A stretch of 64,000 bases of DNA from a virus. A model generated the notes under the pieces. That model did not search any database. It saw only the letters and a list, made by a program, of their open reading frames with translations, and was not told where the DNA came from. Numbering within the stretch: the first letter of the stretch is position 1; every line of letters starts with the position of its first letter. The DNA is taken from the IMG/VR virus record IMGVR_UViG_3300043395_003277, positions 1 to 64,000 of that record; one strand, 5' to 3'. A program made the position numbers and the translations under genes. Shown in pieces: positions 4,984 to 25,946 of this stretch.

Positions 4984-5008
4984 CGTCGAGCTGGACGTTA
5001 AACGTAGC
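4984..5008 (+). ncRNA. mini-pseudoknot element, copy 1 (degenerate)
   Basis: CGTC-GA-GCTG-GACG-TTAAAC-G-TAGC. Confidence 0.5.
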
Positions 5009-5039
5009 AACTTCAACTCAACACCAACTCAACTGAATC

Positions 5040-5225
5040 ATGATTAAAGCTCAACTGTTTATCTTTGTTTTGTTCACTGCCATTACTGCTGGCGCAGCCA
5101 GTCAAGTCGGTATACATCTACTTGATAAAGCAACTGCTCGTCAGTGCCAGGCTAACGATTGGCCTGAAGAACTTGATCGCACTCACAAGGACTGGTGCGT
5201 AGACAACGGCTACAAGATTAACTGA
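5040..5225 (+). CDS. small membrane-anchored early protein
   Basis: 61 aa, N-terminal hydrophobic helix, two Cys; TCAAC-rich leader. Confidence 0.7.
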   Translation: MIKAQLFIFVLFTAITAGAASQVGIHLLDKATARQCQANDWPEELDRTHKDWCVDNGYKIN

Positions 5226-5274
5226 CTCCTGCTCTGGGGACTACGGTCCCCTCAACAGGACTCAACATCCTGTA
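5223..5274 (+). repeat. double-hairpin intergenic element A, copy 1
   Basis: TGACTCCTGCTCT-[GGGGAC TACG GTCCCC]-TCAA-CAGGA-CTCAACA-TCCTGTA. Confidence 0.85.
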
Positions 5275-5294
5275 TACATTATTACTACCACATC

Positions 5295-5492
5295 ATGGAC
5301 AAAGCATTCACTCAAGCTTGCATTGCAATGATCATGGGCACTGGCATTGGCATGCTGTTGTCTGTTGGCGGGCAGAAGATGCTTAACCAACATGCACTCA
5401 AGACATGTCCAAGTAAGTCAGGGCACCAACTTGTAATGCTCACCAGCTTTATTGGTGATGCATTCTATTGCGTTGATAAGCGTTACCTTTGA
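5295..5492 (+). CDS. small membrane-anchored early protein
   Basis: 65 aa, same architecture as 5040-5225 (TM helix, Cys pair). Confidence 0.7.
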   Translation: MDKAFTQACIAMIMGTGIGMLLSVGGQKMLNQHALKTCPSKSGHQLVMLTSFIGDAFYCVDKRYL

Positions 5493-5541
5493 CTCCTGCT
5501 CTGGGGCCACTTGGCCCCTCAACAGGACTCAACATCCTGTA
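5490..5541 (+). repeat. double-hairpin intergenic element A, copy 2
   Basis: TGACTCCTGCTCT-[GGGGCC ACTT GGCCCC]-TCAA-CAGGA-CTCAACA-TCCTGTA. Confidence 0.85.
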
Positions 5542-5561
5542 TTCACCAGCTCATCACAATC

Positions 5562-5801
5562 ATGTTCATTTATCAACCTTGCGAAGAAGCATGTGATCGC
5601 ATTGTCTGGTACGGTGGTGAATCAACTCAACTTCACTACGAAGTGTTCACCGAACGAAGCGAGTGGATCGAACTATCAGTTCGTACACTTGGCGGCGGTA
5701 TACCCATAGGTGTCGGTGCACTTCATGCAGAGATGGTTGATTACTACAACGACTGCAATGCAGGTATCACAATGCTTGCTGATGCATTTATGGAGGACTG
5801 A
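5562..5801 (+). CDS. hypothetical early protein
   Basis: ATG at 5562 after element A and a CA-rich leader (the track's TTG start lies inside the repeat). Confidence 0.7.
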   Translation: MFIYQPCEEACDRIVWYGGESTQLHYEVFTERSEWIELSVRTLGGGIPIGVGALHAEMVDYYNDCNAGITMLADAFMED

Positions 5802-5856
5802 CTTCTGCACTTTCCCATCCGCAAGGATGGGTTACTGCAGGACTCAACATCCTGTA
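5799..5856 (+). repeat. double-hairpin intergenic element A, copy 3
   Basis: TGACTTCTGCACT-TT-[CCCATCC GCAA GGATGGG]-TTACTG-CAGGA-CTCAACA-TCCTGTA. Confidence 0.85.
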
Positions 5857-5879
5857 CACATTCAACTCAACTCAGCACC

Positions 5880-6308
5880 ATGACATTCACACCTGCTACT
5901 GACACTGCTGAACTCAAGCAGTACGCAGACTCGCAACAAGTCCAGTTCTCTGGACGCATTGCGTTTATTAAGCAGTACACCAACGAAGCAGACAACTCTG
6001 TATTCGTTGCTATCAAACTAATTCATAATCTGAACTCCATGGTTCAGATCACTGTTACATTTACGAATAGCAACGGCCTTAACACTGCATACTCCAACGG
6101 CAATCTCGTTGTCGGTCAAGAGTTGCGTGTCTACGGACGTATCACTGGTATTCGTACGACATACCAAGATCAAGATGGACAGCTCCAGGTGCTCAAGCGA
6201 CCCGAGCTACAGCTGACTGTAAGGGATTACGAGTTCGGTCGTAAGCCTGCAGCAAAGACTGAAGCACCGGCCAAGGTTGAGCCAACCCTGGAAGAAATCC
6301 CATTCTGA
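5880..6308 (+). CDS. single-stranded DNA-binding protein-like (single OB fold)
   Basis: beta-rich pattern with G.EL.V.GRI motif and acidic C-terminal LEEIPF tail typical of SSBs. Confidence 0.6.
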   Translation: MTFTPATDTAELKQYADSQQVQFSGRIAFIKQYTNEADNSVFVAIKLIHNLNSMVQITVTFTNSNGLNTAYSNGNLVVGQELRVYGRITGIRTTYQDQDGQLQVLKRPELQLTVRDYEFGRKPAAKTEAPAKVEPTLEEIPF

Positions 6309-6310
6309 TC

Positions 6311-6387
6311 TGATTCCTGCACTTAACCCTTCCGTTGATGCAACCCTGTATCAGCGGTGGGTTTTCTGCAGGATTCAACATCCTGCA
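6311..6387 (+). repeat. double-hairpin intergenic element A, copy 4
   Basis: TGATTCCTGCACT-[longer hairpin CCGTTGATGCA ACCC TGTATCAGCGG]-TTTCTG-CAGGA-TTCAACA-TCCTGCA. Confidence 0.8.
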
Positions 6388-6412
6388 ATTCAATTACCCA
6401 ACATCTCAACAC

Positions 6413-6571
6413 ATGCGCAAATTCATTAACAAGATCTTCTATTCATTGGGATACGTCCCAATAGCAGAATACGAGAAGGTTTGTTACCACCGCCGTAATC
6501 TGCAACGTCTGGTACTTGATTACCAAGACGGCAAGATCAAGCCCGCTCCTAGTTTCGAAATCTACCGATGA
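6413..6571 (+). CDS. hypothetical early protein
   Basis: ATG at 6413 after TCTCAACAC leader. Confidence 0.6.
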   Translation: MRKFINKIFYSLGYVPIAEYEKVCYHRRNLQRLVLDYQDGKIKPAPSFEIYR

Positions 6572-6777
6572 AACATACCGTACGCCTCGGCAAAAACCAG
6601 TACATCAATCTGGATTCTTATGGTGAGTCTAATAAGACTCGACGGATCAACAACCTGATGGTCGCATTCCTTGCGGTACTCATCAGTGTTGTAACTGTAC
6701 CAGCCATGCTGGGCATCGACATCACATCACCTAACACCACAACTCAACATGAGCATCCACATCGCACTCGTCACTGA
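6568..6777 (+). CDS. small membrane protein
   Basis: ATGA overlap, single hydrophobic helix. Confidence 0.6.
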   Translation: MKHTVRLGKNQYINLDSYGESNKTRRINNLMVAFLAVLISVVTVPAMLGIDITSPNTTTQHEHPHRTRH

Positions 6778-6976
6778 CGCATCCGGTCGCTACGCCCACG
6801 TCTGGGGCGAAGCTCCAAGCTGGGGCAAGTTCCTTAATCAACTCGAAGACGTTGGCTGCGAGGTGATCGAGGAACAGACGGAAGACTGGGAAGACAGTAC
6901 TCAAGATGAGATTGCTGAAGACTGCCTGTCAGTCCATCAGCTGCTCAATGACACTGACTTCATACCCCACGACTAG
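6749..6976 (+). CDS. acidic hypothetical protein
   Basis: 75 aa, ACAACTCAAC leader. Confidence 0.7.
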   Translation: MSIHIALVTDASGRYAHVWGEAPSWGKFLNQLEDVGCEVIEEQTEDWEDSTQDEIAEDCLSVHQLLNDTDFIPHD

Positions 6977-7060
6977 TGTCCTGAATCTGAACAATAGCTA
7001 GTGGTGGTACTTGCCACTTGGCTTACCGCCGCTAGCCTGCATACGATTCCAATTCAACCC

Positions 7061-7486
7061 ATGGAAGCTCTCTCTCAACTCGACGTTCAATCACCTGATC
7101 ACGTCTCTGTGATTACCAGGGATGGCAAGGTCACAATCTCCGTCATCAAAGACGGAACATCAGTGACTCTTGGCTTCCCACTCAAGAACATAACCTTTGA
7201 TACAACTCCCCGTCCTCCCCTCCAACAGCCAGCGCCAAAGGTAATGGCTGTTAAGAGTGTTACCAAGACTTCAAGAGATAATGCTTCGACAGGTTATCGC
7301 TTTGCTCAGAAACTCACAGAAGATAAGGTGAAAGAACTCAAGCAAATCCTTGCAGATCCAGAGCTTATGTCCAAGTTCACAAGCAAGACCAAGGCTTATT
7401 ACGAACTTGGTCGCATCTATGGTGTCAGCCATTGTCGCATCTCACAGATTGCCAATGGTAACGGCTGGAACCACGTACAGCCTTGA
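7061..7486 (+). CDS. protein with C-terminal helix-turn-helix
   Basis: KLTEDKV...ELGRIYGVSHCRISQIANGNGWNHV matches the HTH tail seen on phage HNH proteins; ATG at 7061. Confidence 0.6.
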   Translation: MEALSQLDVQSPDHVSVITRDGKVTISVIKDGTSVTLGFPLKNITFDTTPRPPLQQPAPKVMAVKSVTKTSRDNASTGYRFAQKLTEDKVKELKQILADPELMSKFTSKTKAYYELGRIYGVSHCRISQIANGNGWNHVQP

Positions 7487-7515
7487 CACCGCAGTAGTAC
7501 ATAATTACTACGACT

Positions 7516-7605
7516 GGACCTGGACACACGCGGTGTGGATTCAATGAGATCAAAGAGTTATCTTTGTATTTCTTTGGATCCGCCTGCGGCGTCCTTAAAC
7601 TGTCC
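7516..7605 (+). ncRNA. mini-pseudoknot element, copy 2, carrying a 64-nt hairpin insert
   Basis: GGAC-CT-GGACA-[insert 7527-7590 folding as one long hairpin]-GTCC-TTAAAC-TGTCC. Confidence 0.7.
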
Positions 7606-7628
7606 ATTTACTTTATTCAATTCAACTC

Positions 7629-7820
7629 ATGAACGACCTTAATTTTATTGATGAACAACGCAGTGCTGACTTGCTGGATGCAATGGCCGACATTGCAGAC
7701 GAACAAGAGCAAGCCATGCGTGAATCACTTCAATCTGAATGGTCCCTCATCGAAGATGAAGATGGAACATTCATTGGATTTACTGTAACCAACACACATG
7801 AAGACGATGACCAAACTTAA
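7629..7820 (+). CDS. acidic hypothetical protein
   Basis: 63 aa, TTCAATTCAACTC leader. Confidence 0.65.
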   Translation: MNDLNFIDEQRSADLLDAMADIADEQEQAMRESLQSEWSLIEDEDGTFIGFTVTNTHEDDDQT

Positions 7821-8238
7821 TTACACACTGAAACAAGCATGGGATGACGGTGACATCATCGTCATCCTGATCACTATCATTTCAATCATCATTACGGAGT
7901 TTGCATCATGTCTTACATCTCAGAACTCAAGAAGTTCTACCCCAAAACCTACAAAGCTCGTTACGCAATCAACGCCTACGACACCCACAAGTACTTCGAA
8001 CACGAAGATCCAACGGTCATCACCATCCACGAAACCACGCTCAACTACGGTGGGCCTGAAGAAGGTGGATGGTGGTACCAAGCAGGATACCCAGTCCGAA
8101 GCCACTGTATCTTCTCCAAGAAGCAGGCGATCCAAACCTTCATCCAGTACTTCGAAGAGTACGAAATCGAAGGCCAGCCATCTCTTGGAGATTCAACAAC
8201 TTACTTCAACATCGAACTTGGTTTCTCAAACGGACTAG
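7807..8238 (+). CDS. possible membrane-anchored Ser/Thr/Lys-rich protein overprinted on next gene
   Basis: non-overlapped 5' part encodes an Ile-rich TM helix; frame stays open across 7908-8238. Confidence 0.35.
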   Translation: MTKLNYTLKQAWDDGDIIVILITIISIIITEFASCLTSQNSRSSTPKPTKLVTQSTPTTPTSTSNTKIQRSSPSTKPRSTTVGLKKVDGGTKQDTQSEATVSSPRSRRSKPSSSTSKSTKSKASHLLEIQQLTSTSNLVSQTD

Positions 8239-10565: not shown

Positions 10566-10835
10566 ATGACTACAACACATTGCTCAGTTCTCGCAATCGA
10601 GGACACTTTCATCCAAGGAAACAATGTCACAGTTACTGCAGTTGTTGAAGACATGCGCCTGCTTTATCGGGCGTCATATCGAGACCCTGAAGAATGGGCT
10701 CCTGCACTGTGCACAGCAAGTTTCGAATTGGATGACGATGAACAAATCCCTACTGATGAAGATGGCTTCTGCTGTTATCTGCATCACCGGGATTTGGAAT
10801 GGCAACTTGTCGACGTAAGTGATTACGACGACTGA
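10566..10835 (+). CDS. acidic hypothetical protein
   Basis: 89 aa ORF. Confidence 0.7.
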   Translation: MTTTHCSVLAIEDTFIQGNNVTVTAVVEDMRLLYRASYRDPEEWAPALCTASFELDDDEQIPTDEDGFCCYLHHRDLEWQLVDVSDYDD

Positions 10836-10844: not shown

Positions 10845-10871
10845 CGTCCTGAGCATGACGCTAAACTGCTC
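10845..10871 (+). ncRNA. mini-pseudoknot element, copy 3
   Basis: CGTC-CT-GAGCA-T-GACG-CTAAAC-TGCTC. Confidence 0.75.
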
Positions 10872-10909
10872 ACACCACACTACGAACTTAACTCCGAACC
10901 AACCATGCA

Positions 10910-11452
10910 ATGAAACCAAATCCACTTCCACCTCTTGATTATTTGCAACAGATGTTTTATTTAGATGCAACATCTCCGAGTGGTTTGCGCTGGCGTAAAG
11001 CGCCAAGCGCTTGGACCAAAGTAAATTCTGTTGCTGGTATTCAACGCACCAAAGATCATTACTGGCGTGTTCGTTGGAAGTACCAAGGTAAAGCAATGGA
11101 TTATATGGCTCATCGCATTGTATATGCACTGCAACATGGCCTCGATCCAGGGAATATGTTTGTAGATCATATGCACAATGATAAAGACAACAACAAGCCA
11201 TTGCGATTAGCTACTAAATTGCAAAACTCACACAATCGTAATGGTCGCAAAAATACAAGCAGCATTTACAAAGGTGTTTGTTTAATTAAAGCGACTGGTC
11301 GATGGCGTGCATGCATTCGTATTGATAAACAATTCAAACACATTGGTGTGTACGCCACGCAAGAAGAAGCGGCTTTGGCTTACAACGAGGCCGCTTTGCT
11401 ACATTTTGGTGAGTTTGCTCGCCTCAATCAAATCAACTCAACCCAAAACTAA
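10910..11452 (+). CDS. HNH homing endonuclease with AP2 domain
   Basis: AHRIVY...VDH..N..DN...LR; C-terminal YKGV...WRACI...HIGVY.T.EEAALAYN. Confidence 0.9.
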   Translation: MKPNPLPPLDYLQQMFYLDATSPSGLRWRKAPSAWTKVNSVAGIQRTKDHYWRVRWKYQGKAMDYMAHRIVYALQHGLDPGNMFVDHMHNDKDNNKPLRLATKLQNSHNRNGRKNTSSIYKGVCLIKATGRWRACIRIDKQFKHIGVYATQEEAALAYNEAALLHFGEFARLNQINSTQN

Positions 11453-11454
11453 TC

Positions 11455-13191
11455 ATGCAATTCGCTCTTTCCTCCAACCTGCAAACTGAACTGCTTGCTT
11501 ATGACCCCAAGCTCAAGGCATTGGTAGCAGAGCAGACCAAGCTCAACAAGAAGCCTGGTGCTAAGCCCAAGTATCCACTTGGTAACATCAATGACTTGAT
11601 CCCAGCTGATGTTGTTGCACCTTCACTGCAGCAACAAGCGATTGATCACATCAACTCTCAGCTGGCACCAGAGCGTCATCAAATCTTTACACACATCAAA
11701 GGTCAAGACATCAAAGTCAGTGCAATCATCTATCACTTTGAGCAATGCTGGGTAGCAGCATGGCTGCCGCCCAAAGGTAAGGAATCTGAGTATGTCTACG
11801 GTTATACCGTGGCATACAAGAATACTACCAGCGCACTCAAAGTTGTTACACATAAGATTGCACGTCAACGAGAGCAATATCAGCTCAAGAACTATGGACG
11901 GTCCGAAGTTTATTACTACCAGAAACTTGTAACCATCAAAGACATTCAAGATGGTTTAGATACATCTGAATGGCGACTACCTGGTATTACAAATTACGGT
12001 GCTAAGCCCAGGTTTATTAGTGCAACTATTGCCAGATTTGAACAAGAGCTGCGCACAACACTTCCCACATGGGAAGACTCACGCACCAGTATGTTCGACC
12101 GCATCAAATGCAAATGCATTGGCGAAGTTGTACTAGAAACCCAACAAGTGTACAAGCGTCATCTGGAGACAACGAATAAGTTACAGACATGGCAACCATC
12201 AGCTGCAACGTATCTTGAGATGACAGAACATTATGTTAACCAAGATAGAGGATTGTATTCACAGTACAAATATAGCAATCGAATCAAACATATTATTGAT
12301 ACACCATACTTCCGCAAGTGGATTCAAGCACAATGTGATCTATCATCTGCCGCATATAACTCGGCTGATAACCAACAGCGTGGCACTATAACGCAACCGT
12401 GGCGACGCATTGGTTTATTGTTCAATGCAATCAATTCTATTCATTACATTTGGCCTGATACACCAATCGATTACTTCCAGAACAACATTGATACCATGCT
12501 CACCATGGAAATGGATCGAGCAGGGATGCACATCAGTGTTGTTTACTGGTTGCGTCAACACATGCCTGTAGCTTCTTACTTTGCCATTGCACGTAAAGCA
12601 ATGGAAGAGAAGCTGCAAAATGATTCATCACATTATATGAATATTGAATATGGCATTAAGCGTTATAACTGCTACGAATGGAATGACACCATCTCCATGC
12701 TCAGCCGTATTGCTGCAGAAAGTGAAAACGAAACGCTAACTCTTGCACCGCCACGTCGTTGGCGCATCACTGAGTTCCATGATTATGTACAAGCAGAAAC
12801 ATGGAAGATTCGTAATAAGAACGAATCACTGCCTCAAGACTTGTTCCCTGAACCCATCAAGATTCATTATAACGACAAAGCATGGTCATTGTTCCAGCCA
12901 CTCGACACTCATCAGCTAGCAGCCTGGGGTCAGGCCGTACGTAACTGCGTCGGCTCTGCCAACAGCTACGCTGAAGGCGTCCGCAAGAAGCAACACTTCA
13001 TTGTTTTGTGTCTGCTGGATGGCAAGCCGCACTTCACCATTCAACTACGTGTTGAGCATGGTGTGATGTCTGTTGACCAAATCAAGGGCTATGCCAATTC
13101 CAGCCTCAACGACAGGGATCGTGAAGAATACACAGCTGTATTCAAGGAAGCATTGCGCATCCGTGATGAGCAGCTAAGCTCTAAGAGCTGA
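11455..13191 (+). CDS. PcfJ-like domain protein
   Basis: C-terminal FHD...L..WGQAVRNCVG...Y...FTIQL...QIKGYAN signature. Confidence 0.75.
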   Translation: MQFALSSNLQTELLAYDPKLKALVAEQTKLNKKPGAKPKYPLGNINDLIPADVVAPSLQQQAIDHINSQLAPERHQIFTHIKGQDIKVSAIIYHFEQCWVAAWLPPKGKESEYVYGYTVAYKNTTSALKVVTHKIARQREQYQLKNYGRSEVYYYQKLVTIKDIQDGLDTSEWRLPGITNYGAKPRFISATIARFEQELRTTLPTWEDSRTSMFDRIKCKCIGEVVLETQQVYKRHLETTNKLQTWQPSAATYLEMTEHYVNQDRGLYSQYKYSNRIKHIIDTPYFRKWIQAQCDLSSAAYNSADNQQRGTITQPWRRIGLLFNAINSIHYIWPDTPIDYFQNNIDTMLTMEMDRAGMHISVVYWLRQHMPVASYFAIARKAMEEKLQNDSSHYMNIEYGIKRYNCYEWNDTISMLSRIAAESENETLTLAPPRRWRITEFHDYVQAETWKIRNKNESLPQDLFPEPIKIHYNDKAWSLFQPLDTHQLAAWGQAVRNCVGSANSYAEGVRKKQHFIVLCLLDGKPHFTIQLRVEHGVMSVDQIKGYANSSLNDRDREEYTAVFKEALRIRDEQLSSKS

Positions 13192-14526: not shown

Positions 14527-14602
14527 GCCCGAGTAGCCCAGCGGAAGAGGCAAGCGACTTAAAATCGCTCCAGCGTGAGTTCGAATCTCACCTCGGGTAC
14601 CA
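14527..14602 (+). tRNA. trnL: tRNA-Leu(TAA) with short variable loop and encoded CCA
   Basis: acceptor GCCCGAG/CTCGGGT, anticodon arm AGCGA-CTTAAAA-TCGCT, T arm GTGAG-TTCGAAT-CTCAC, ACCA end. Confidence 0.92.
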
Positions 14603-14625
14603 ACCTACACATTCAACTCAACACC

Positions 14626-14988
14626 ATGTCTATCTTCTCCTGCTTCAAACACATCATTCCTGAGTTCCATGCATACTCAGATGATGAGCAGCGCTACAAC
14701 CTTGGCGCCACATGGACGGCACCTGACGGTCTTCGTGATTATCATAACGTTGAGCTGCGGTACGTCCATAACTCAGAGCGCCTTGCTCTCCAGGGGGACC
14801 CGCAACCCGATGGCACATGGCGCTATGTAGAACCAAACGGTAACGTCCACACCATATCAGCGGAACGCGCTAAGCAATTCATGGAACAAACCCAGTCCCA
14901 TGCGACCATCATGATGGCCATGCTTGGCAAGTTACAAGATGCTGGCGTCTTGGATGCTGCTGTGGACACCACTGCTCAACCCGCCTAG
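14626..14988 (+). CDS. hypothetical protein
   Basis: ATG at 14626 after TTCAACTCAACACC leader. Confidence 0.75.
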   Translation: MSIFSCFKHIIPEFHAYSDDEQRYNLGATWTAPDGLRDYHNVELRYVHNSERLALQGDPQPDGTWRYVEPNGNVHTISAERAKQFMEQTQSHATIMMAMLGKLQDAGVLDAAVDTTAQPA

Positions 14989-18024: not shown

Positions 18025-18051
18025 CGTCCTGAACATGACGTTAAACTGTTT
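18025..18051 (+). ncRNA. mini-pseudoknot element, copy 4
   Basis: CGTC-CT-GAACA-T-GACG-TTAAAC-TGTTT. Confidence 0.75.
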
Positions 18052-18074
18052 GTCACTCCAACTCAACTCAACCA

Positions 18075-18842
18075 ATGAAACTCCTCAAGTTTTCTACTGG
18101 TAACGGTAAGCTCAAAAATCGTTTGATCTTCTCACTACCAGCGGGGTATGCATGCCCTCATGCTGGTGTCTGCAAGACCTTTGCTGACCGTGTTACAGGT
18201 GCCATCACTGATCTGCCTCAGCACTCTGGTACAACTGCAGATGAGTACCGCTGCTTTGCTGCTATGGCAGAGGTCCGGCCAAACGTACGAGAAGCACGTT
18301 GGCATAACTGGGATCTATTGCGTGAAACCATTCACCTCAATGGGAACCAGGCTGTGCTACTGCGTGACCTGATCGACATGTCACTTAGCATGCAACCACC
18401 CAAGAAGCTGATACGCATCCATGAGTCGGGTGATTTCTGGACTGAGAACTACATGCGTGCATGGGCAATGGTTGCAGCGCAGCGGCCACAACAACAGTTC
18501 TATGCCTACACCAAATCTCTAGGCATGTGGTTAAATCTTAAAGATCAGATGCCATCCAACTTTTATCTCACTGCATCGCACGGCGGTACACTCGACTACT
18601 TGATTCCCAAATATCCCAATGTGTTCCAGCGTGTTGCTTACGTTGTGTACACAGAAGAACAAGCAGTGGAACGTGGTCTTGAAATTGACCATGACGACAG
18701 CCACTGCTTAGGAGACAAGCCTTTTGCGCTGCTGGTTCACGGTTCTCAACGTGCCGGTAGCGAGGCTTCTAAAGCCCTATCTCAACGCAAGAAGGATGGG
18801 GGATTTGTTGGATATGGCAAATCAATTCAGAAAACATTCTGA
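18075..18842 (+). CDS. GP88-family protein
   Basis: GNGKL..FSLPAG.ACP.AG.C...CFA; RIHESGDF; FYAYTK. Confidence 0.75.
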   Translation: MKLLKFSTGNGKLKNRLIFSLPAGYACPHAGVCKTFADRVTGAITDLPQHSGTTADEYRCFAAMAEVRPNVREARWHNWDLLRETIHLNGNQAVLLRDLIDMSLSMQPPKKLIRIHESGDFWTENYMRAWAMVAAQRPQQQFYAYTKSLGMWLNLKDQMPSNFYLTASHGGTLDYLIPKYPNVFQRVAYVVYTEEQAVERGLEIDHDDSHCLGDKPFALLVHGSQRAGSEASKALSQRKKDGGFVGYGKSIQKTF

Positions 18843-18897: not shown

Positions 18898-19131
18898 ATG
18901 AGCTACGTCATTGTTACCTGGAAACTTGGGGCACCTCATGCCGTAAGTGCATGCAGTAAGACTAATTCTTTTCGCCTTGTTCCGTTAGACTCTGACGTAG
19001 CTCTTACCAAGATTTTTTCTCATCCCTATCGTGCGGGTGCGCAACAAATCTTGAATTGGATTAACAAGAATGACCATCAACTCGCCTGTCAAGAACTCGA
19101 CGTTTTCGATGAAGCCCAGTTCCGCCACTGA
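18898..19131 (+). CDS. hypothetical protein
   Basis: ATG at 18898; overlaps polymerase start. Confidence 0.6.
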   Translation: MSYVIVTWKLGAPHAVSACSKTNSFRLVPLDSDVALTKIFSHPYRAGAQQILNWINKNDHQLACQELDVFDEAQFRH

Positions 19132-20929
19132 AACTTGGCTTGTATTCGATTGTGAAACGGATGGGTTGTATGACAAGGCTAGTGTTATTCATTGTTTAGT
19201 CATCTATGACATCAATAGACAACAAACTTTTACTTATGGGCCTGATTGCATTGCTGATGCTATTGCTCATCTGGCAACCGCTGATGTACTCATTGGCCAT
19301 AACATAATTTTCTACGACATTCCAGTTCTACAAAAGCTGCATTCATTTGACTGCAAATCACGTATTGTTGACACTCTTGTATGCACACGTTTGATTTGGC
19401 CAAAGGAGCAACTCTATGATTGGGACGAAGAACAACATACGCAGGTTCCGCCGAACCTACGTGGATCCGCATCGCTTAAGGCCTGGGGATGGCGCTTGGC
19501 CTCAAATAAAATTAACTTCAAAGACTTCTCCGAGTATTCGCAAGAGATGCTCGACTACTGTGTCCAAGATGTTGTCGTTACTACCAAGCTTTGGCAACTT
19601 ATCTCAACGCAAAACTATCCACAATCAGCACTCAAGCTGGAGCATGACTTTGCCCTGGCGATTAACCGACAGATTAGAACAGGCTTTCCTTTTGATATGG
19701 ATGCATGTCTTGATCTTGTGGATGGTCTCAGAACAAAACAACAAGAACTCGAAGCTAATCTAAAAGAAATCTTTCCGCCTATTAAAGAAGAAACAATATT
19801 TATTCCAAAGGTTAATAACGCTAAAAGAGGCTACGTTAAAGGTCAGCCATTTACCAAAGTCACATACCAAGAATTTAATCCAGGCTCTCGCGATCAAATT
19901 GTGCAACGCCTTAAAGAAAAATACGGATGGAATCCAGAAACAACTACTGATAAGGGCAATCCAGTTCTTAATGATGACGTATTGGAAGCTTTGCCATATC
20001 CAGAGGCAAAGCCTTTGGCTGAATATATGCTGGTCAAAAAACGTCTTGGCCAGATAACTGATGGACGTAACGCCTGGACAAACTTGTACAACAATGACAC
20101 CAGCTGTATCCACGGGGATGTTGTTACTAACGGTTGCATTACTGGGCGCTGTGCACACCGGAATCCAAACATGGGCCAAGTACCAGCGGCTTACTCTCCC
20201 TATGGAAAGGAGTGTCGCAGTTTGTTCTCTGCTCCTCACGGCTGGAACCTCGTTGGTGTTGACGCTAAAGCACTTGAATTACGTTGCCTCGCTGGATATC
20301 TTGCCCTATGGGACCACGGGGAATACGCTTCTCTGGTAACAGATGATGAAGTTGATATCCATGAATACAACCGTCAGCAGTTTGGTGTGCCCACCAGGGA
20401 CATCAGTAAGCGTTTGCTGTATGGAATGTTGTACGGATGTGGTGCAATTAAAGCCGGTACAATCATTGATCCGAATGAAAAAAATGAAGTTGTTCTGAAA
20501 AGATTAGGAAGTAGCGCCATCAATTCATTCATGCGCGGTGTGCCAGCACTGCGTGAATTGAAAGAAAAACTTAGTGCAAACCTATCAGAACGTGGCGTGT
20601 TATTTGGTTTGGATAAACGCATTCTTTATTGCCGTTCAGATTTCAAGGCACTCAATGTTTTATTGCAATCAGCTGGCGCAATCATCATGAAACAAGTGGT
20701 TGTTAACTTACATAACAACATGCAGTCAACTGGTCTTATCTATGGTGTTGATTGGTTCCAGCACGCCATGGTCCATGACGAAATCCAGCTGTCCTGCAAG
20801 CCCCAGCACACTGAGCTGCTGAAGGAAAAAGCTTTGCTTTCCTTTCCCCAGGCTCAGCAATTTCTTAACTTTAAATGCGATATCGAAGGCAATGCCAAGG
20901 TTGGGCATTGCTGGTACGATACCCACTAA
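19070..20929 (+). CDS. polA: T7-type family A DNA polymerase with 3'-5' exonuclease
   Basis: ExoI FDCETDG, ExoII GHNIIFYD, ExoIII YCVQDV; motif A DAKALELR, motif B RDISKRLLYGMLYG, motif C VHDE; start may be 19109. Confidence 0.96.
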   Translation: MTINSPVKNSTFSMKPSSATETWLVFDCETDGLYDKASVIHCLVIYDINRQQTFTYGPDCIADAIAHLATADVLIGHNIIFYDIPVLQKLHSFDCKSRIVDTLVCTRLIWPKEQLYDWDEEQHTQVPPNLRGSASLKAWGWRLASNKINFKDFSEYSQEMLDYCVQDVVVTTKLWQLISTQNYPQSALKLEHDFALAINRQIRTGFPFDMDACLDLVDGLRTKQQELEANLKEIFPPIKEETIFIPKVNNAKRGYVKGQPFTKVTYQEFNPGSRDQIVQRLKEKYGWNPETTTDKGNPVLNDDVLEALPYPEAKPLAEYMLVKKRLGQITDGRNAWTNLYNNDTSCIHGDVVTNGCITGRCAHRNPNMGQVPAAYSPYGKECRSLFSAPHGWNLVGVDAKALELRCLAGYLALWDHGEYASLVTDDEVDIHEYNRQQFGVPTRDISKRLLYGMLYGCGAIKAGTIIDPNEKNEVVLKRLGSSAINSFMRGVPALRELKEKLSANLSERGVLFGLDKRILYCRSDFKALNVLLQSAGAIIMKQVVVNLHNNMQSTGLIYGVDWFQHAMVHDEIQLSCKPQHTELLKEKALLSFPQAQQFLNFKCDIEGNAKVGHCWYDTH

Positions 20930-20936: not shown

Positions 20937-20964
20937 CGTCCTCAGGTACGACGTTAAACTGCCT
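20937..20964 (+). ncRNA. mini-pseudoknot element, copy 5
   Basis: CGTC-CTC-AGGTA-C-GACG-TTAAAC-TGCCT. Confidence 0.75.
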
Positions 20965-20984
20965 TACCACCATCTACTACACAC

Positions 20985-21791
20985 ATGAACAACTTTGTTT
21001 CTGCTTATGCGCAAACCTTGGAAGAGCCAAGGGAAGTTTATATATCGGCAACCTCAACAGCAATCAGGTGTTTAGTTGGGTTGCCACCTGTTGGAAATAA
21101 AGCAGCAACACAAATCGAACTCAATGTCTACGGCAAAAACGCAGAGCGATTTGCACGTGCGCCAAAAGGAGCACACATCTACATTCACGGCGCCAAGCTA
21201 CGTCATGATCTCGAATCCAGAACGCACTCGCTCCATGGAGGATCTATTGCACCGGTTAATGACCAATTCCCAATCTTCAATGATGTCATCCTTGTTGGAC
21301 GATGCGTGAAAGATTTGGGAGATGATAATCGCGCCTTCCGTACAACCGAAGGTGGACTGATGATTTGCCAGCAAGCGCTTTCTGTCAGCACAGGTAAAAA
21401 CCAAGCTGATCTATTTAACTTTTATGCAATCAACTCAGCCACAGATAAATTAAACAACGCTGAATTGCTTTATAACTTTACACGTAAAGGTACTGGTATT
21501 ACGTTGCGTGGTCGTCTTGTTACAGATAGCTGGACTGATCAGACCACAAAAGAACGTAAGTCTCAAACCAAGATCCAACTGGTCAGCATGACGCTGGCAC
21601 CTAAGACAACATCAGGTGATACCAAACAACCACAAGCTCAACCCGTAGCAACCAATGCAGCGGAAGCGCCATCTCTTTGGAACAATCACAGTGCTCCTGT
21701 TGATCCTTGGAATGTGGCTTCTGGTGGTGGGCTTCCTGACCTCCCTGGTCATTACGGCCCTACACCTGATCTTGAAGAGCAACCTTTCTGA
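20985..21791 (+). CDS. ssb: single-stranded DNA-binding protein with tandem OB folds
   Basis: two SSB-like halves (KGAHIYIHG; KGTGITLRGRLVTDSWTD..T.ERKS) and acidic DLEEQPF tail. Confidence 0.8.
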   Translation: MNNFVSAYAQTLEEPREVYISATSTAIRCLVGLPPVGNKAATQIELNVYGKNAERFARAPKGAHIYIHGAKLRHDLESRTHSLHGGSIAPVNDQFPIFNDVILVGRCVKDLGDDNRAFRTTEGGLMICQQALSVSTGKNQADLFNFYAINSATDKLNNAELLYNFTRKGTGITLRGRLVTDSWTDQTTKERKSQTKIQLVSMTLAPKTTSGDTKQPQAQPVATNAAEAPSLWNNHSAPVDPWNVASGGGLPDLPGHYGPTPDLEEQPF

Positions 21792-22024
21792 TGGAACTGC
21801 GATCCTTGAGCTTCCTCTGCAAAGAGGAAGACTTCACCATCTCATTTGAGTCTCAAGGTGTTACTTCTGATGAGGTAATGCAACACTTTGTTCAGTTCAT
21901 GGTTGGCATTGGTTACACACGCGCCAGTGTTCATGACGCCATGCGGGAGATTGTTGAGGAACACGAAGATTACCTCAAGAGTTATGACGGTGCAAAAGCA
22001 GACCTCCCATTTGCAATAGAGTGA
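21791..22024 (+). CDS. hypothetical protein
   Basis: 77 aa, F.QFM.G.GY motif common in phage small proteins. Confidence 0.7.
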   Translation: MELRSLSFLCKEEDFTISFESQGVTSDEVMQHFVQFMVGIGYTRASVHDAMREIVEEHEDYLKSYDGAKADLPFAIE

Positions 22025-22029
22025 TGTTA

Positions 22030-22056
22030 CGTCCTGGGATGACGTTAAACTCATCC
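22030..22056 (+). ncRNA. mini-pseudoknot element, copy 6
   Basis: CGTC-CT-GGGA-T-GACG-TTAAAC-TCATCC (bulged P2). Confidence 0.65.
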
Positions 22057-22077
22057 ACTGTTCACTCTGAACAAACC

Positions 22078-23178
22078 ATGACACAAACACCGATTGATCC
22101 GCTAACTGATGAATGGATGGATAACATCCAAGCTGAAGAAATCACTCCTCCTTCTCTGAAAACTCTCAACAAAATGACTACGAAAAAAACCTCTGCTCTT
22201 GCTACACGCGGTCTGGAATCTTTCCAGATGTTCCAGTCCAAAGAATTTGTTTCGGGTTACCAGAACCTGGTCACTATTCAACCACTGAATAAGTCCAAGA
22301 CTCGTGGCTGGTTTGTCCGCAAGTCTGATCTAGATACTTGCAGTTGGTCCGCAACTGAAGATCAGTTTGCAAAAGGTTCTGTAATCTGGAACTACAAACA
22401 AACTTTTGGGATGGCTCCCAACACTTCAACAGAAGAAGGTCTTAACTTTACTGAGCCTCGTCTCCAAATTCTGTTGCGTTCTCCACTCATGGTGGAAGAA
22501 ACTACCGGTATGCGCCAAGTCATTGGCTCGTTTGATCACCCACAAGTCAAAGAACTTTTTGAGGCTGACAAGATTGCTTCTGATCTTGCCAACAGCAAAG
22601 GTGAAATGTACAAGCGTAAGTACAGCGTACGTACAAAATACTTGGTTTATATCCTGACCCAGGATAATAAACGTGCCCATAAGATCCCAATGGTGCTGAC
22701 TCTGAAGGGATTAAACGGTACCGATGTATCGGATAAGATCCGTATCTATGAAAAAGAGATGTCCAAGTGCTTGAGTAAAGCGCTGGATTCCGAGGTGCCT
22801 TTGGCATTCAACGAAAAGTTTTATGCCACTACAGTATTCTGCCCGGTACTTGCAAATGAAATGCGTGGTGCCAACAACGTTGAAATCTGCGCTATCGAAT
22901 CGTTTGACATCCCTGATTACAGCTCTCAAGAAGATGCAATTGAATCACTGAATCGTCTTTCTATTCCTGATGAAGATCGGGAATCCACATGGAAGATGCA
23001 AGAGATGTTCCAGGATTACATCAATATCCACGCAAAACAAGATGCTCAAAAGTTAAATGGTGCATATGGAATTAAAGAAGGAGTCGAAATCCTTCCTGCT
23101 TCACGCACTACAGAAACAGTAGATGTTAAATCTTTGCCCGCTCGGGATCCTCTTACTGGTGAAGATTCTGAACTTTGA
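22078..23178 (+). CDS. DUF5895-like cyanobacterial/phage protein
   Basis: GLNFTEPRLQIL.RSPL...TKYLVYIL..DNK..H..P..L.LKG..G pattern; next to SSB. Confidence 0.5.
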   Translation: MTQTPIDPLTDEWMDNIQAEEITPPSLKTLNKMTTKKTSALATRGLESFQMFQSKEFVSGYQNLVTIQPLNKSKTRGWFVRKSDLDTCSWSATEDQFAKGSVIWNYKQTFGMAPNTSTEEGLNFTEPRLQILLRSPLMVEETTGMRQVIGSFDHPQVKELFEADKIASDLANSKGEMYKRKYSVRTKYLVYILTQDNKRAHKIPMVLTLKGLNGTDVSDKIRIYEKEMSKCLSKALDSEVPLAFNEKFYATTVFCPVLANEMRGANNVEICAIESFDIPDYSSQEDAIESLNRLSIPDEDRESTWKMQEMFQDYINIHAKQDAQKLNGAYGIKEGVEILPASRTTETVDVKSLPARDPLTGEDSEL

Positions 23179-23184
23179 TTGGCA

Positions 23185-23607
23185 ATGCATCGATTTTTAT
23201 CTTTAATTGATGCAGAAGGAGGGCCAGCATCTTGCTGGCCTTTTCTTGGTTCTGCAATGGGTGCAGGTTATGGGCAAATGCCTCCGAATCCAGTAACACG
23301 TTTAGCACATCGTTGGTCTTACAACTTTTTTATCGGTCCAATTCCAAAAGGTAAAGTGGTTATGCATATTTGCGATAACCGCAAATGCTGTAATCCACTG
23401 CATTTAAAAATTGGAACCCAACAAGAAAATTTGTTGGACATGAATAAAAAACAAAGGCATGGCACCCATCCTAAAAAATGCACACCAGAACTTTTAAAAC
23501 AAATTATTACTATGAAACAACAAGGATTTACTGCAGTTCAAATTGGAAACGCTGTTGGTTACAACAAGCGTACTATTTTTCGTTTGTTAAGTGAGGCTAA
23601 GGAATAG
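23185..23607 (+). CDS. HNH endonuclease (Zn-binding loop type) with HTH
   Basis: CWPF.G...GYG...AHRWSY...VMHICDNRKCCNPLHL.IGT..EN. Confidence 0.9.
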   Translation: MHRFLSLIDAEGGPASCWPFLGSAMGAGYGQMPPNPVTRLAHRWSYNFFIGPIPKGKVVMHICDNRKCCNPLHLKIGTQQENLLDMNKKQRHGTHPKKCTPELLKQIITMKQQGFTAVQIGNAVGYNKRTIFRLLSEAKE

Positions 23608-23851
23608 GGGGATTGGCAATATCTTCCTCGTTAACAGAAACATTATTGAAGATGAACATGTCTTGAACTAATCCCCGAATTACTCCTTGCCTATTTGTTG
23701 CAATTTGTGCAAGCAAGGTCGCCATCTCTTTTAAAGTACTTATCGAATCACATTCATCAATGCTACGTTTAATTTTTTCTAACCAAAACTTATCCTCCAT
23801 GCTTGGTTCAATCTGAAATTTAGTTAACGGTACGTACTTAATTTCTTCCAT
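23597..23851 (-). CDS. NblA-like phycobilisome degradation protein (divergent)
   Basis: PSMEDKFWLEKIKRSI...LKEMATLLAQIATNRQGVIRGLV aligns by eye to the NblA LSLEQ.F helix-loop-helix. Confidence 0.5.
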   Translation of the reverse strand: MEEIKYVPLTKFQIEPSMEDKFWLEKIKRSIDECDSISTLKEMATLLAQIATNRQGVIRGLVQDMFIFNNVSVNEEDIANPPIP

Positions 23852-23930
23852 TTGTATTTAGTTGTTACAGTTATTTTACTCACACATTTAAACTGTAATC
23901 AAACCTTCTGATTGTGTTAACAATTACAAA

Positions 23931-24128
23931 ATGAAACCAGAAGAAAAAGCTGCACTCAAAGCGGGTGGTACCACAGCTCTTGTAGCTGGTGCCATTGCCG
24001 CAACCATTGCCAATCCTGTTGCGTGGGCTGCCGTTCTTTACGGTGCTTATCGAATGGGTAAGACGGCTTACCGTGCTGCCAAGGAGCGCGATACACTGGA
24101 GAAGCAGAGGGAAAGTCATTACCTCTGA
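23931..24128 (+). CDS. small membrane protein
   Basis: 65 aa, Ala-rich hydrophobic core. Confidence 0.65.
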   Translation: MKPEEKAALKAGGTTALVAGAIAATIANPVAWAAVLYGAYRMGKTAYRAAKERDTLEKQRESHYL

Positions 24129-24160
24129 CTTCAATCAACTCAACTCAATTCAACACAACA

Positions 24161-25099
24161 ATGGACATTACTCTTCAGCTGACATCTGATCAATCTCTGA
24201 TCTATAACCGCACCAACATCAGACGTGCATATGAAGGATTTGATGACACCGAAATCGCTGGGATTTTTGTGCGAGATGATGATTGTCTCGTGGTGCGTCG
24301 CGATGGTACTGAGCAAAGTTATGACAGGCAATTGATAAGAAATGCTTATGTCTCTTATACACATCGCCTTAAAGACTTTTTTGCTTACCTAGGTCCAAAC
24401 TATAGGGGTCCTAGTATTTGGCACAACAATGCCTATGTCCTTTTCAAAGGATGGAACTACACCCATGTCCTCGGACACACAACCCCTAACGCTAAGCTCC
24501 AAGCAAACTGGGCAGACAAATTTATCCACCTCTCAGACCCCAATAAACTTGTCACGTTACTACAGTCTGACCAAACGGACCTGGGCTATTTGGTGGCACC
24601 AGACGGGATGCGGCTTCCGGATCGGCCGCTTGATATGGACTCTTCACTGGATTACAGCCAAGAACAAAAGCCGATGTTTGGCGAACCTTACTGCTCGTGT
24701 GGGTCGTTTCAGCGTCAGCTCGGTGCTATACAAACTCTCCAAGAAGAAATCCAGGGATATAAGCCGTGGTGTATCCACCTGACTTGGTTCAATAAATACC
24801 GTGAGCTTCTGTGCAAACGCACTGAAGTACGTAATGCTGCGCCCTCTGGAACACCAGATAAATGTGTAGCTTGGTTTTATGCACCTCCAGCAGATCATAT
24901 CAGTGATGGTCGCTTTGTGCTTTTGCATACCAAACAAGGTGCTCAAGCCCCGCTCAGTCACTGGCGTACCTACAAATCTAAAGAAGTCCTGACGCAACAT
25001 GATGCGTGGGATCTTTTCTTTAATATGCTTGAGGCCGGTTACGTTCCATTCCCTGGTACCGCACTGCCTCAATTAAAACCAGCACTTAAGAAACAATGA
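24161..25099 (+). CDS. SWIM zinc-finger-containing protein
   Basis: YCSCGSF...WCIH (CxC-n-CxH). Confidence 0.7.
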   Translation: MDITLQLTSDQSLIYNRTNIRRAYEGFDDTEIAGIFVRDDDCLVVRRDGTEQSYDRQLIRNAYVSYTHRLKDFFAYLGPNYRGPSIWHNNAYVLFKGWNYTHVLGHTTPNAKLQANWADKFIHLSDPNKLVTLLQSDQTDLGYLVAPDGMRLPDRPLDMDSSLDYSQEQKPMFGEPYCSCGSFQRQLGAIQTLQEEIQGYKPWCIHLTWFNKYRELLCKRTEVRNAAPSGTPDKCVAWFYAPPADHISDGRFVLLHTKQGAQAPLSHWRTYKSKEVLTQHDAWDLFFNMLEAGYVPFPGTALPQLKPALKKQ

Positions 25100-25150
25100 C
25101 AACAACTCAAGAAATGCTTGAGTATACAAAAACAAATGCTTGGTGCACCA

Positions 25151-25393
25151 ATGAATAACACGCAAACCAAAACTAAAATGATTCGTTATGACTTAGAAGT
25201 TCCAGAAGAGTTCCATTGGAAACTTGTAGCATTAGGTGCTAAGCAAAAACTTCATTACGAAGATTATGCTGAACGCGTACTTCAAGAGTTTGCCGTTAAA
25301 GCCACTCAAAAAATCAACGATGATTTCAAACAATCCATCATTAACCAGTTGGGTCAGCAAGTTAAAACTCCAAGTAATGGAGGACAATCCTGA
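25151..25393 (+). CDS. putative ribbon-helix-helix protein
   Basis: RYDLEVPEEFHWKL...YAERVL pattern. Confidence 0.45.
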   Translation: MNNTQTKTKMIRYDLEVPEEFHWKLVALGAKQKLHYEDYAERVLQEFAVKATQKINDDFKQSIINQLGQQVKTPSNGGQS

Positions 25394-25541
25394 CGGCAGC
25401 TGTGACATCCACATCGAATGGGATGAAACAGATCCAGATCTTGCTCTGTGGAATTCATGGGGTGAAGAAGGACAGAAGCAATTTGTCCTTGATGCATTAA
25501 AAAACGCTTGCAACCACGCTCTTTCAACCGATGACAATTGA
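25377..25541 (+). CDS. hypothetical protein
   Basis: ATG at 25377, EDNPDGS motif; true start may be slightly upstream. Confidence 0.55.
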   Translation: MEDNPDGSCDIHIEWDETDPDLALWNSWGEEGQKQFVLDALKNACNHALSTDDN

Positions 25542-25914
25542 TGCTTACCAACTGCCAGAAGAGCAGTACACAAAGTTCTTTGAGAAGAACGCACGTCTTG
25601 CCTGTCAGCTTTATCTAAAGCTGCACAACATTGCAACAATTGAAGGTGTTGGCAACATTGATTTCCGCACCTTAATGGAGCTTTATAACGATTGCATCTA
25701 TGCATCGAATGAAGATTGCCGTCAGTACCAAAAACAACATGATCCAGAAGTTGTTGCTAAACAACAAGAAGATCTGTTTATTTATGGATCGCCATCTAGG
25801 GAAGAGATGATGGAAGAAATTAAATCTATCAATGCCAAAGTTGAATCTATAGTTGATTACATCACAGGACTAACAGATACATTAAAGACAGGATTTACTA
25901 AAATTCAATCCTGA
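25531..25914 (+). CDS. hypothetical protein
   Basis: 127-aa ORF. Confidence 0.7.
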   Translation: MTIDAYQLPEEQYTKFFEKNARLACQLYLKLHNIATIEGVGNIDFRTLMELYNDCIYASNEDCRQYQKQHDPEVVAKQQEDLFIYGSPSREEMMEEIKSINAKVESIVDYITGLTDTLKTGFTKIQS

Positions 25915-25919
25915 TTCAT

Positions 25920-25946
25920 AGTCCTGGTCACGACTTTAAACTGACC
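25920..25946 (+). ncRNA. mini-pseudoknot element, copy 7
   Basis: AGTC-CT-GGTCA-C-GACT-TTAAAC-TGACC. Confidence 0.78.

Follow-up and report, generated by a model that had tools for sequence, protein, structure and literature searches.

The DNA analysed here (the window) comprises bases 1-64000 of an 85,449-bp IMG/VR virus record, IMGVR_UViG_3300043395_003277, which has direct terminal repeats at its ends. The source is an S-EIV1-like cyanophage: at 19070-20929 it encodes a family-A DNA polymerase sharing 70.5% identity with the one in Synechococcus phage S-EIV1 (KJ410740), the nearest isolate by protein search, with no other isolate close, and a megablast search of 16 kb against a phage collection gave no match. 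The window stretch is contained in 24 DNA runs, mostly labelled as freshwater metagenomes, and in no RNA run among those found; S-EIV1 itself is a polar freshwater cyanophage. Genes for an HNH-AP2 endonuclease, a PcfJ-like protein, GP88, the DNA polymerase, a protein binding single-stranded DNA (SSB), a DUF5895 protein and a Gp157-like protein lie on the + strand in a block at approximately 5040-29200, and it is within this block that copies of a small RNA pseudoknot (the knot), the subject of this analysis, are located.

Five canonical copies of 27-28 nucleotides (nt) are present, all on the + strand, together with an interrupted copy at 7516-7606 and a degenerate copy at 4984. An initial annotation of this DNA had proposed seven such sites (4984, 7516, 10845, 18025, 20937, 22030 and 25920), and the sequences read as claimed at every one of these coordinates. 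The canonical layout is that of two interleaved helices, P1 of 4 bp and P2 of 5 bp, arranged in the order P1 (NGWC), the 2-nt loop L1 (CU, or CUC in one copy), P2 (NNNYA), a single base as L2, P1' (GWCN), the 6-nt loop L3 (YUAAAC) and P2' (URNNN). A covariance model, R1, was built from 62 distinct copies found in this phage's relatives, with P2 modelled as pairs and everything else as sequence; searched against the genome it recovers exactly the five canonical copies, with E-values of 1.7e-9 to 3.4e-6, and the sole extra match (E 6) is junk. The pattern GWCNYTAAACT occurs six times on the + strand of the window and not at all on the minus strand, with 0.54 expected from shuffles, and GTCCT-N5-8-GACNYTAAAC occurs five times forward and never in reverse in the whole 85,449-bp genome, where a reversed-pattern control finds nothing in either direction.

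The copy at 10845-10871 (44.7 bits, E 1.7e-9) has P1 CGTC/GACG, L1 CT, P2 GAGCA/TGCTC, L2 T and L3 CTAAAC. It begins 9 nt after the stop of the upstream open reading frame (ORF) at 10835 and is followed by a G-poor leader without a Shine-Dalgarno sequence (10872-10909), the end of P2' lying 38 nt from the ATG of the HNH-AP2 gene at 10910 and 32 nt from an older ATG at 10904 that is a remnant start of the PcfJ-like gene. The copy at 18025-18051 (44.3 bits) also has P1 CGTC/GACG, with P2 GAACA/TGTTT (one G.U pair) and L3 TTAAAC; it is 101 nt past the last ORF of at least 35 amino acids (aa), with a TAA 8 nt upstream, and a CA-rich leader of 23 nt (18052-18074) separates it from the GP88-family gene starting at 18075. 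The copy with the 3-nt L1 (CTC) is at 20937-20964 (32.2 bits); it starts 7 nt after the DNA polymerase stop codon, its P2 is AGGTA/TGCCT (one U.G pair), and a 20-nt leader devoid of G (20965-20984) leads to the SSB gene at 20985. The copy at 25920-25946 (39.5 bits) shows covarying helices, with P1 AGTC/GACT and P2 GGTCA/TGACC, and sits 5 nt after the stop at 25914 and 23 nt (25947-25969) before the ATG at 25970 of a 39-aa ORF beginning MFESI. Lastly, the copy at 22030-22056 (32.1 bits), 5 nt after the stop at 22024, belongs to a GGGAT subclass with a register shift in P2 (GGAT/ATCC or GGATG/CATCC) and with a longer L3, TTAAACTC; its leader (22057-22077) places the end of P2' 21-22 nt from the ATG of the DUF5895 gene at 22078. 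This subclass recurs in relatives as GGGAU, with the topology kept, the register shifted and L3 longer.

A more complex arrangement is seen at 7516-7606, on the same strand, where GGAC-CT-GGACA and GTCC-TTAAAC-TGTCC are separated by a 64-nt insert at L2. This copy begins 29 nt after a stop codon, and a 22-nt leader connects it to the ATG at 7629. Because P1 and P2 both contain GGAC, a nested fold of 7516-7606 competes with the pseudoknot and is equally possible. The insert (7527-7590) itself folds into a long, nearly perfect hairpin (-45.8 kcal/mol for the region, z -7.4), and no homologous insert was found in the related loci. The degenerate + strand copy (4984-5008) stands at the head of the gene block and retains P1 CGTC/GACG and TTAAAC, with no CT and at most 3 bp of P2; it is not detected by R1. 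Six further insert-type matches lack the CT, the GWC or a proper leader and were set aside as chance, as was a minus-strand look-alike at 33690 that lies inside the + strand ORF 32459-33796.

The single helices are weak by energy (-3.3 to -7.4 kcal/mol, z -0.1 to -1.7) and not significant, so structural support for the knot rests on covariation among its relatives. A polymerase search of IMG/VR yielded 35 related loci (labelled L here, as are the further loci below) with 34-79% amino-acid identity, 31 of them at 59-79%. A regular expression found 106 matches on the gene strand of these loci and 13 unrelated-looking matches on the other strand, giving 62 distinct cores. When these are aligned, 97.3% of the pseudoknot cells are paired and six of the nine pairs show changes on both sides; the covariation score is 0.474, compared with 0.200 in shuffles, and none of 500 shuffles reaches the observed value, while slid partner registers are just 20-52% paired. 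The expression that selected these cores required P1 to pair, and the unbiased check on P1 is a resampling anchored on P2 alone, in which all four P1 pairs form in 41 of 44 distinct copies and three of the four in the remaining three copies, with none on the minus strand.

An R1 search of 30 sources (about 600 kb, both strands) gave 100 matches with E<=1, all of them on the gene strand. In the alignment of these copies 96.5% of cells are paired. The first P1 position is CG in 72, AU in eight, GC in seven and UA in seven copies, the third is UA in 89 and AU in eight with no unpaired cell, and P1 pairing is not rewarded by the model; four of the five P2 pairs have changed on both sides, a figure that leans towards R1 since R1 rewards P2 pairing. 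P2 contains 47 G.U or U.G cells on the + strand, each of which would be an A.C mismatch on the opposite strand. L2 is a single nucleotide in nearly all copies, and the loops are near-invariant (the C of L1, an A-U pair and UAAA) while the stems vary. The TAAAC linker, which the initial annotation had called invariant, is so within the window and less strictly kept in relatives, where UAAAAC, UUAAAA and UUAAAG also occur. At six places in S-EIV1 itself a copy stands immediately ahead of an annotated gene, and individual phages carry 5-8 copies, ahead of replication genes including SSB.

The same pairing is found well outside this clade. An exact scan of IMG/VR with GTCCT-N6-GACGTTAAACT gave at least 117 stretches, and the 80 loci examined contain 96 viral instances whose P2 takes 20 distinct sequences; all five P2 pairs are present in 84 of these and four of the five in nine, shifted registers reach 5/5 in 0-1 of the 96, and with a stricter flank requirement 82 of 94 are 5/5 paired. 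Scanning prokaryotes with the same pattern, at one genome per species, gave at least 120 stretches, and 80 loci examined hold 85 bacterial instances, with P2 5/5 paired in 56 and 4/5 in 15 and with 0-2 reaching 5/5 in shifted registers; the remaining bacterial instances look like chance matches. On the + strand, G.U cells number 57 against 4 A.C for the viral instances and 50 against 16 for the bacterial ones, in agreement with the earlier claim that the G-U pairs work on the + strand only. Both helices covary, as had been proposed from the window copies, and a repeated + strand module is strongly supported by covariation and strand asymmetry together. The element is, as well supported as comparative data allow, an H-type (classical) RNA pseudoknot on the sense strand. 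An L1 of 2 nt across the 5-bp P2 and an L3 of 6 nt across the 4-bp P1 are within classical pseudoknot limits, and general pseudoknot rules make an A-minor role of the AAA strand plausible. The invariant C, the A-U pair and UAAA hint at base triples of L1 in the major groove and of L3 in the minor groove.

The covariation also bears on whether the signal could act at the level of DNA, with TAAACT as a -10-like box or with the whole element serving a phage polymerase as a structured promoter of single-stranded DNA. In favour, TAAACT agrees with TANNNT, genes follow the elements at a fixed distance, and the 18025 copy has a sigma-70-like match ending 7 nt upstream of P1. However, the covariation spans the supposed -10 box, which recognition of duplex DNA cannot explain, and G.U pairs greatly outnumber A.C on the + strand. 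Moreover, no -35 or -10 box is conserved at a fixed distance in 83, 162 or 110 copies, promoter-like matches in the block (20, with 36.6 expected) bear no relation to the copies, the scan of 19 large ORFs (a subset of the genes) revealed no RNA polymerase, and several bacterial 5' untranslated regions have an ordinary promoter upstream of the knot. A promoter of the sigma-70 type is contradicted by the covariation, the G.U asymmetry and the missing -35/-10 elements, and any DNA-level role is highly improbable.

The initial annotation could not assign the motif to a named family, and no Rfam 15 family matches it. At gathering score, the 4227 models find only a tRNA in the whole window; within 4900-26100 no match with E<=10 overlaps a copy, and no match lies over a copy in 20 other viral and 18 bacterial loci, eight of the latter searched also at E<=10. 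Because no Rfam model overlaps the copies, the catalogued preQ1, GP20-a/b, ribozyme and exoribonuclease-resistant RNA (xrRNA) families are ruled out. Among catalogued self-cleaving ribozymes, the pistol, HDV-like, hatchet, twister and hammerhead classes were considered and rejected on this ground.

The preQ1-I riboswitch aptamers are defined by an L2 of several nucleotides with a ligand-pairing C, a P2' over the ribosome-binding site and queuosine-related genes downstream. The knot resembles them (RF00522) in its size of about 30 nt, its H-type topology with the P2 5' strand within the P1 loop, the A-rich L3 directly after P1' and its 5' leader location. It differs in lacking a match to that model even at E<=10, in its one-base L2, in occurring several times per genome, in a 5-bp P2 that has no overlap with a ribosome-binding site (the start being at least 20 nt downstream, with no Shine-Dalgarno sequence), and in having no queuosine genes downstream. 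An identity with preQ1-I was rejected on the length of L2, the missing ribosome-binding-site overlap and the unrelated downstream genes.

Among Enterococcus, Desulfosporosinus and related (pro)phages, the knot is situated in leaders that precede scaffold genes (PF06810, which is the GP20/scaffold family, and PF14265). GP20-a and GP20-b (RF02991, RF03003) share this context, as do six further candidate RNAs described in PMC10690425; neither Rfam model matches these loci at gathering score or at E<=10, and a GP20-a/b leader RNA was rejected for L163, L164 and L159, where the gene context is present. The same survey reports 8,495 candidate RNAs from IMG/VR, six of them upstream of GP20 genes, and the motif may already be among them. 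No description of the motif was found in the literature searched, the candidate alignments of PMC10690425 lying outside what was compared. The motif is real, strongly supported and uncatalogued, and it constitutes a new RNA family of a familiar structural kind whose modular use is unusual.

Placement within the S-EIV1-like clade was examined in 110 context-distinct regular-expression matches from the genome and the related loci, among which are a few chance hits. The distance from the upstream stop codon to P1 has a mode of 5 nt (37 copies), followed by 6 nt (12) and 7 nt (6), with a single shorter case, such that 55 of the 110 are at 5-7 nt; another 27 are 14-58 nt away, and in 18 cases no ORF ends within 60 nt. 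Besides the stop codon, nothing is conserved upstream of the knot in sets of 83, 162 and 110 copies, and a T-R-A signal at -8 to -6 is also present in 162 other viral copies. On the other side, measured from the end of P2' to the first ATG that opens an ORF of at least 30 aa, 14, 14, 20 and 21 copies lie at 20, 21, 22 and 23 nt respectively (69/110) and only one at 24 nt; 96 of the 110 fall at 20-36 nt, including a minor group at 27-36 nt, and the outliers are four below 20 nt, eight above 36 nt and two with no such ATG. This spacing is preserved before at least seven downstream gene families, as judged from ORF lengths and leader families. The leaders have a G content of 8%, compared with 21% overall, contain frequent CAACTCAAC-like repeats, and in this clade show no Shine-Dalgarno sequence between knot and ATG. 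The regions upstream of the phage's late and other genes are of an ordinary A-rich kind (G 19-20%, C 16-17%) and have neither knot nor CA-rich leader, and some genes of the block have a CA-rich leader without a preceding structure, for example at 24129-24160.

Both distances correspond to known ribosome geometry. With a spacer of 5 nt behind the A-site codon, P1 begins at the mRNA entry, and the 30S footprint has its edge about 20 nt upstream of the AUG. Because both limits are matched, the knot would thus be packed as tightly as possible while remaining clear of terminating and initiating ribosomes, and, being clear of the former by 5 nt and of the initiating 30S subunit by 20-23 nt, it could stay folded permanently. 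Frameshift stimulators use the same 5-nt spacing, and the luteovirus and retrovirus recoding pseudoknots that stimulate frameshifting and readthrough are of similar size, with 5-7 nt between the A-site codon and the structure. The knot differs from these in that it follows ordinary stop codons of all three kinds and is itself followed by a new start codon; no conserved slippery sequence was seen upstream, extension frames not having been examined systematically.

The narrow downstream spacing raises the possibility that the knot is a ruler or docking point for initiation, abutting the mRNA exit or platform of the 30S subunit or binding S1 and setting the register for an AUG 20-23 nt downstream. 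The tight distribution with its abrupt fall after 23 nt, its maintenance across gene families, the G-poor leaders without Shine-Dalgarno sequences and the absence of both knot and CA-rich leader from the late genes are all in keeping with this, and so is the spacing of other structures in the same position, a tRNA at 23 nt and double-hairpin cassettes at about 22-25 nt from their ATGs. However, some genes of the block have the CA-rich leader and no structure, and outside the clade the distance from knot to start ranges from about 13 to 61 nt with ordinary Shine-Dalgarno sequences present. Since the distances vary and Shine-Dalgarno sequences are present elsewhere, a ruler is excluded as the general role of the motif, and even within the clade we regard it as a possible, if doubtful, explanation.

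The tRNA in question is a + strand tRNA-Leu(UAA) with an encoded CCA that, together with a 23-nt CA-rich leader, occupies 14527-14625 (tRNA at 14527-14602, ATG at 14626), where a pseudoknot would usually be. Because the order of tRNA, leader and ATG is kept in most relatives, the tRNA-Leu doubles as a structured module ahead of the gene. Orthologues of gene 14626 are preceded either by an upstream tRNA or by a different conserved element. This second element consists of an outer helix (CYGGG/CCCRG), CAU, a variable inner hairpin and GUAAGY, has a T-loop-like look, and lies about 24-31 nt before ATGs; it is found upstream of the gene-14626 orthologues in L011, L027, L019, L028 and L034, upstream of orthologues of gene 8699 in L006, L007, L035, L038 and L041, and at 5800-5835 and 11864-11893 of L021. 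In a sub-clade comprising L017, L021-L024 and L026, the R1 search finds no pseudoknot, and the second element is present upstream of SSB at comparable distances from stop and start. A third type of cassette separates the first early genes of the window (5223-5295, 5490-5563, 5799-5880 and 6311-6400) and consists of TGA, YYCCTGC, a variable GC-rich hairpin and then CAGGAYTCAACATCCTG, followed by a leader of about 22-25 nt. As tRNA, hairpin element and cassettes fill equivalent slots, the pseudoknot is one of several interchangeable structured modules placed before an unstructured leader of 20-26 nt. A CAGGA in the third cassette is able to pair with either of its flanking TCCTG sequences.

Beyond the clade, many of the matched viral contigs are not S-EIV1-like and have Shine-Dalgarno sequences, GC-rich flanks and a variable distance to the next ORF. 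Two of 47 viral copies examined fall within long ORFs, copies stand in tandem on some contigs, and in one phage lineage the knot is 13 nt after the last tRNA of an array. The paired bacterial instances derive from Firmicutes, Omnitrophota, Desulfobacterota, Saccharibacteria, Chloroflexi and Planctomycetes, with single cases in other phyla; there are no Gammaproteobacteria among the paired instances of the 80 loci examined, to which no statistical test was applied. Knots of Firmicutes (pro)phages often lie 1-11 nt after a terminator-like hairpin and T-run and are followed by a second small hairpin and a Shine-Dalgarno sequence. An Erysipelotrichales-type group has a sigma-A-like promoter upstream, a less well paired P2, and a helix enclosing the knot that pairs with the Shine-Dalgarno region of a 74-aa gene. 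The cyanophage-centred frame of the initial annotation is therefore too narrow, the motif recurring in unrelated viral contigs and several bacterial phyla.

A small ORF is conserved at the knot in Omnitrophota, Desulfobacterota and Planctomycetes; it terminates at the first P1 base, at a UGA within P1 or at the UAA of L3, and 19-37 nt further on comes a gene, most often one for an Rrf2 regulator. The peptide has no Pfam or NCBIfam match. Its tail is dispensable, the nucleotides are kept and P2 still covaries, and it is thus the RNA rather than the peptide that is conserved at these loci; the small ORF may encode a Cys/His leader peptide coupled to the knot. The ORF is 18-27 aa long with a core of R[FY]M[IL]..VAHC..GC and is found at loci within L160-L237 (for example L200:3860-3943 on the minus strand), and copper and redox functions are present among the genes nearby.

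Structured elements that punctuate long polycistronic transcripts are familiar from the RNase III sites of T7 and from tRNA punctuation. The knot is comparable in that it stands between the cistrons of long phage transcripts, with a tRNA in equivalent slots, and differs in its predicted form, which is neither a long duplex nor a tRNA. It could act in the same way by directing a cut in the transcript, whether by RNase P recognising a tRNA-like coaxial stack, by RNase E, J or Z, or by its own action as a minimal ribozyme cleaving itself at the 5' edge. Its position immediately after the previous unit (5 nt from a stop, 1-11 nt from a terminator hairpin or 13 nt from a tRNA), its exchange for a genuine tRNA at an orthologous slot, the conservation of nothing upstream except a stop codon, and the presence of a pistol ribozyme or a RAGATH-5 RNA on the same contigs in two of 20 other viral loci scanned are consistent with processing, and the cross-phylum spread would suit a universal enzyme or self-catalysis. 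Conversely, no Rfam ribozyme family overlaps a copy, no RCCA-like tail is conserved after P2' in the aligned rows as judged by eye, and the coaxial stack is just 9-10 bp; no natural self-cleaving ribozyme as small as 27-28 nt is known, which counts against the ribozyme version. Processing directed by the knot, whether by an enzyme or by self-cleavage, is, on balance, rather unlikely.

A different reading is suggested by the contrast between near-invariant loop nucleotides and variable stems, namely that the knot is an operator or aptamer that binds a small ligand or a trans-acting protein of the phage or its host, comparable to T4 gp32 or RegA, and so coordinates several genes. The leader pseudoknot of T4 gene 32 mRNA is an autoregulatory operator, and the knot resembles it as a small pseudoknot at the 5' edge of an unstructured leader, the 20937 copy preceding a phage SSB gene; it differs in that it also precedes at least six other gene families as well as bacterial genes, and in its CA-rich leader. 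The number of copies per phage before replication genes, the tandem copies, the helix that encloses the knot and reaches the Shine-Dalgarno region in one Firmicutes group (as in riboswitch expression platforms), and the different element found in this slot in a sister clade, which co-evolution of element and partner would lead one to expect, would all fit. However, the downstream genes are diverse (HNH/PcfJ-like, GP88, SSB, DUF5895, scaffold and Rrf2), which fits neither a metabolite switch nor a single phage protein, and in this phage the start lies at least 20 nt away in an unstructured leader, leaving nothing to sequester. A single-base L2 leaves little room for a pocket of the preQ1-I type, which counts against an aptamer. 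A phage-specific regulator is further weakened because the motif occurs in unrelated phages and in bacteria, and this breadth argues against a phage-specific partner. We consider an operator or aptamer unlikely.

A plausible scenario, which we favour tentatively and at less than an even chance, is that the knot is a constitutively folded boundary or cap that would shield the 5' edge of the downstream cistron and insulate its leader. Several contexts indicate that the knot belongs to the downstream unit: in Firmicutes (pro)phages it directly follows terminator-like hairpins and precedes scaffold genes, in one phage lineage it comes just after the last tRNA of an array, and in some 5' untranslated regions a sigma-A-like promoter lies upstream. 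The placement clear of both ribosomes, the exchange with a tRNA or hairpin module at equivalent slots and the breadth of the distribution also speak for this scenario. From the observed fold, strand, positions and breadth we infer nuclease resistance and an effect on expression, as follows. The knot would mark the 5' boundary of a translation unit inside a long phage transcript and, once folded, would serve as a nuclease-resistant, insulating 5' cap for the downstream cistron. Such a cap may stop 5'-to-3' decay by RNase J, or by 5'-end-dependent RNase E, whether arriving from upstream or from a cut in the spacer, and would keep the G-poor leader, which has no Shine-Dalgarno sequence, single-stranded and of defined length for ribosome loading. 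The expression of each cistron could in this way be uncoupled from that of its neighbour. Small pseudoknots serve as exonuclease shields on engineered guide RNAs, and the natural xrRNAs are larger, ring-forming folds. By analogy with both, a compact pseudoknot could form a mechanical block to exonucleases; the 27-28-nt knot differs from xrRNAs in being smaller than the ring folds and in matching no Rfam xrRNA family.

Several observations weigh against a cap. Each helix alone is weak, a plain hairpin would suffice for protection, and loops that are near-invariant across phyla point instead to a specific partner or tertiary fold. Because the small ORF ends at or inside the knot in Omnitrophota and Desulfobacterota, ribosomes must melt it there, and the enclosing helix that pairs with the Shine-Dalgarno region in one Firmicutes group resembles a switch more than a cap. 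The abrupt limit above 23 nt agrees better with an optimum of spacing than with a mere lower bound, and the 110 placement copies are not independent, orthologous copies sharing descent. The boundary, ruler and processing roles also overlap. Capping and processing would both be served by cleavage within the spacer and subsequent protection of the resulting 5' end. A further-reaching version, doubtful as it stands, is that the knot represents a new cross-phylum class of minimal RNA that acts alone, as a 27-28-nt exoribonuclease-resistant RNA or as a self-cleaving or RNase-P-directing mark, and that is swapped with tRNAs to cut and cap cistrons.

If the fold acts as its placement suggests, it would be a very small, portable natural part for insulating gene expression within an operon, apparently used by cyanobacterial and Firmicutes phages and by several bacterial phyla. 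It would then bear on how start codons are chosen in organisms without Shine-Dalgarno sequences, on how phages set different protein levels from one long transcript, and on the smallest RNA able to resist or direct a ribonuclease. With 27 bases and dozens of natural compensatory variants it is a ready test object. For S-EIV1-like cyanophages, in which most genes are hypothetical, a model of the motif would also point out true gene starts.

Among the various other features of these loci, we note that the HNH-AP2 endonuclease gene (10910-11452) lies directly behind the 10845 pseudoknot and its leader (region 10904-11457); in relatives the counterpart of this leader serves a PcfJ-like gene whose product starts with MQF. 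In the window the sequence reads ATGCA and then immediately the ATG of the HNH gene, with the PcfJ-like ORF beginning anew at 11455 (MQFALS...). The arrangement resembles a homing endonuclease that has inserted itself at the very beginning of its target gene and borrows the initiation region of that gene.

The locus L212 (RFNU01000091, 'bacterium isolate LLD_282') has three pseudoknots with S-EIV1-type leaders and with SSB- and DUF5895-like starts, and is most likely a phage contig mis-binned into a metagenome-assembled genome. The pistol ribozyme (L062, 369-435) and the RAGATH-5 RNA (L081, 2617-2669, minus strand) are Rfam matches at gathering score on unrelated viral contigs and are situated approximately 0.6-1 kb from the pseudoknot. 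Finally, the early region of L021, which belongs to the sub-clade without knots, contains three dispersed 74-nt repeats (772-845, 1043-1116 and 1363-1436) with covarying GC-rich stems and 64-74% identity. Similar sequences are located upstream of a gene in L020, L022 and L023, and these repeats are probably another structured RNA family.

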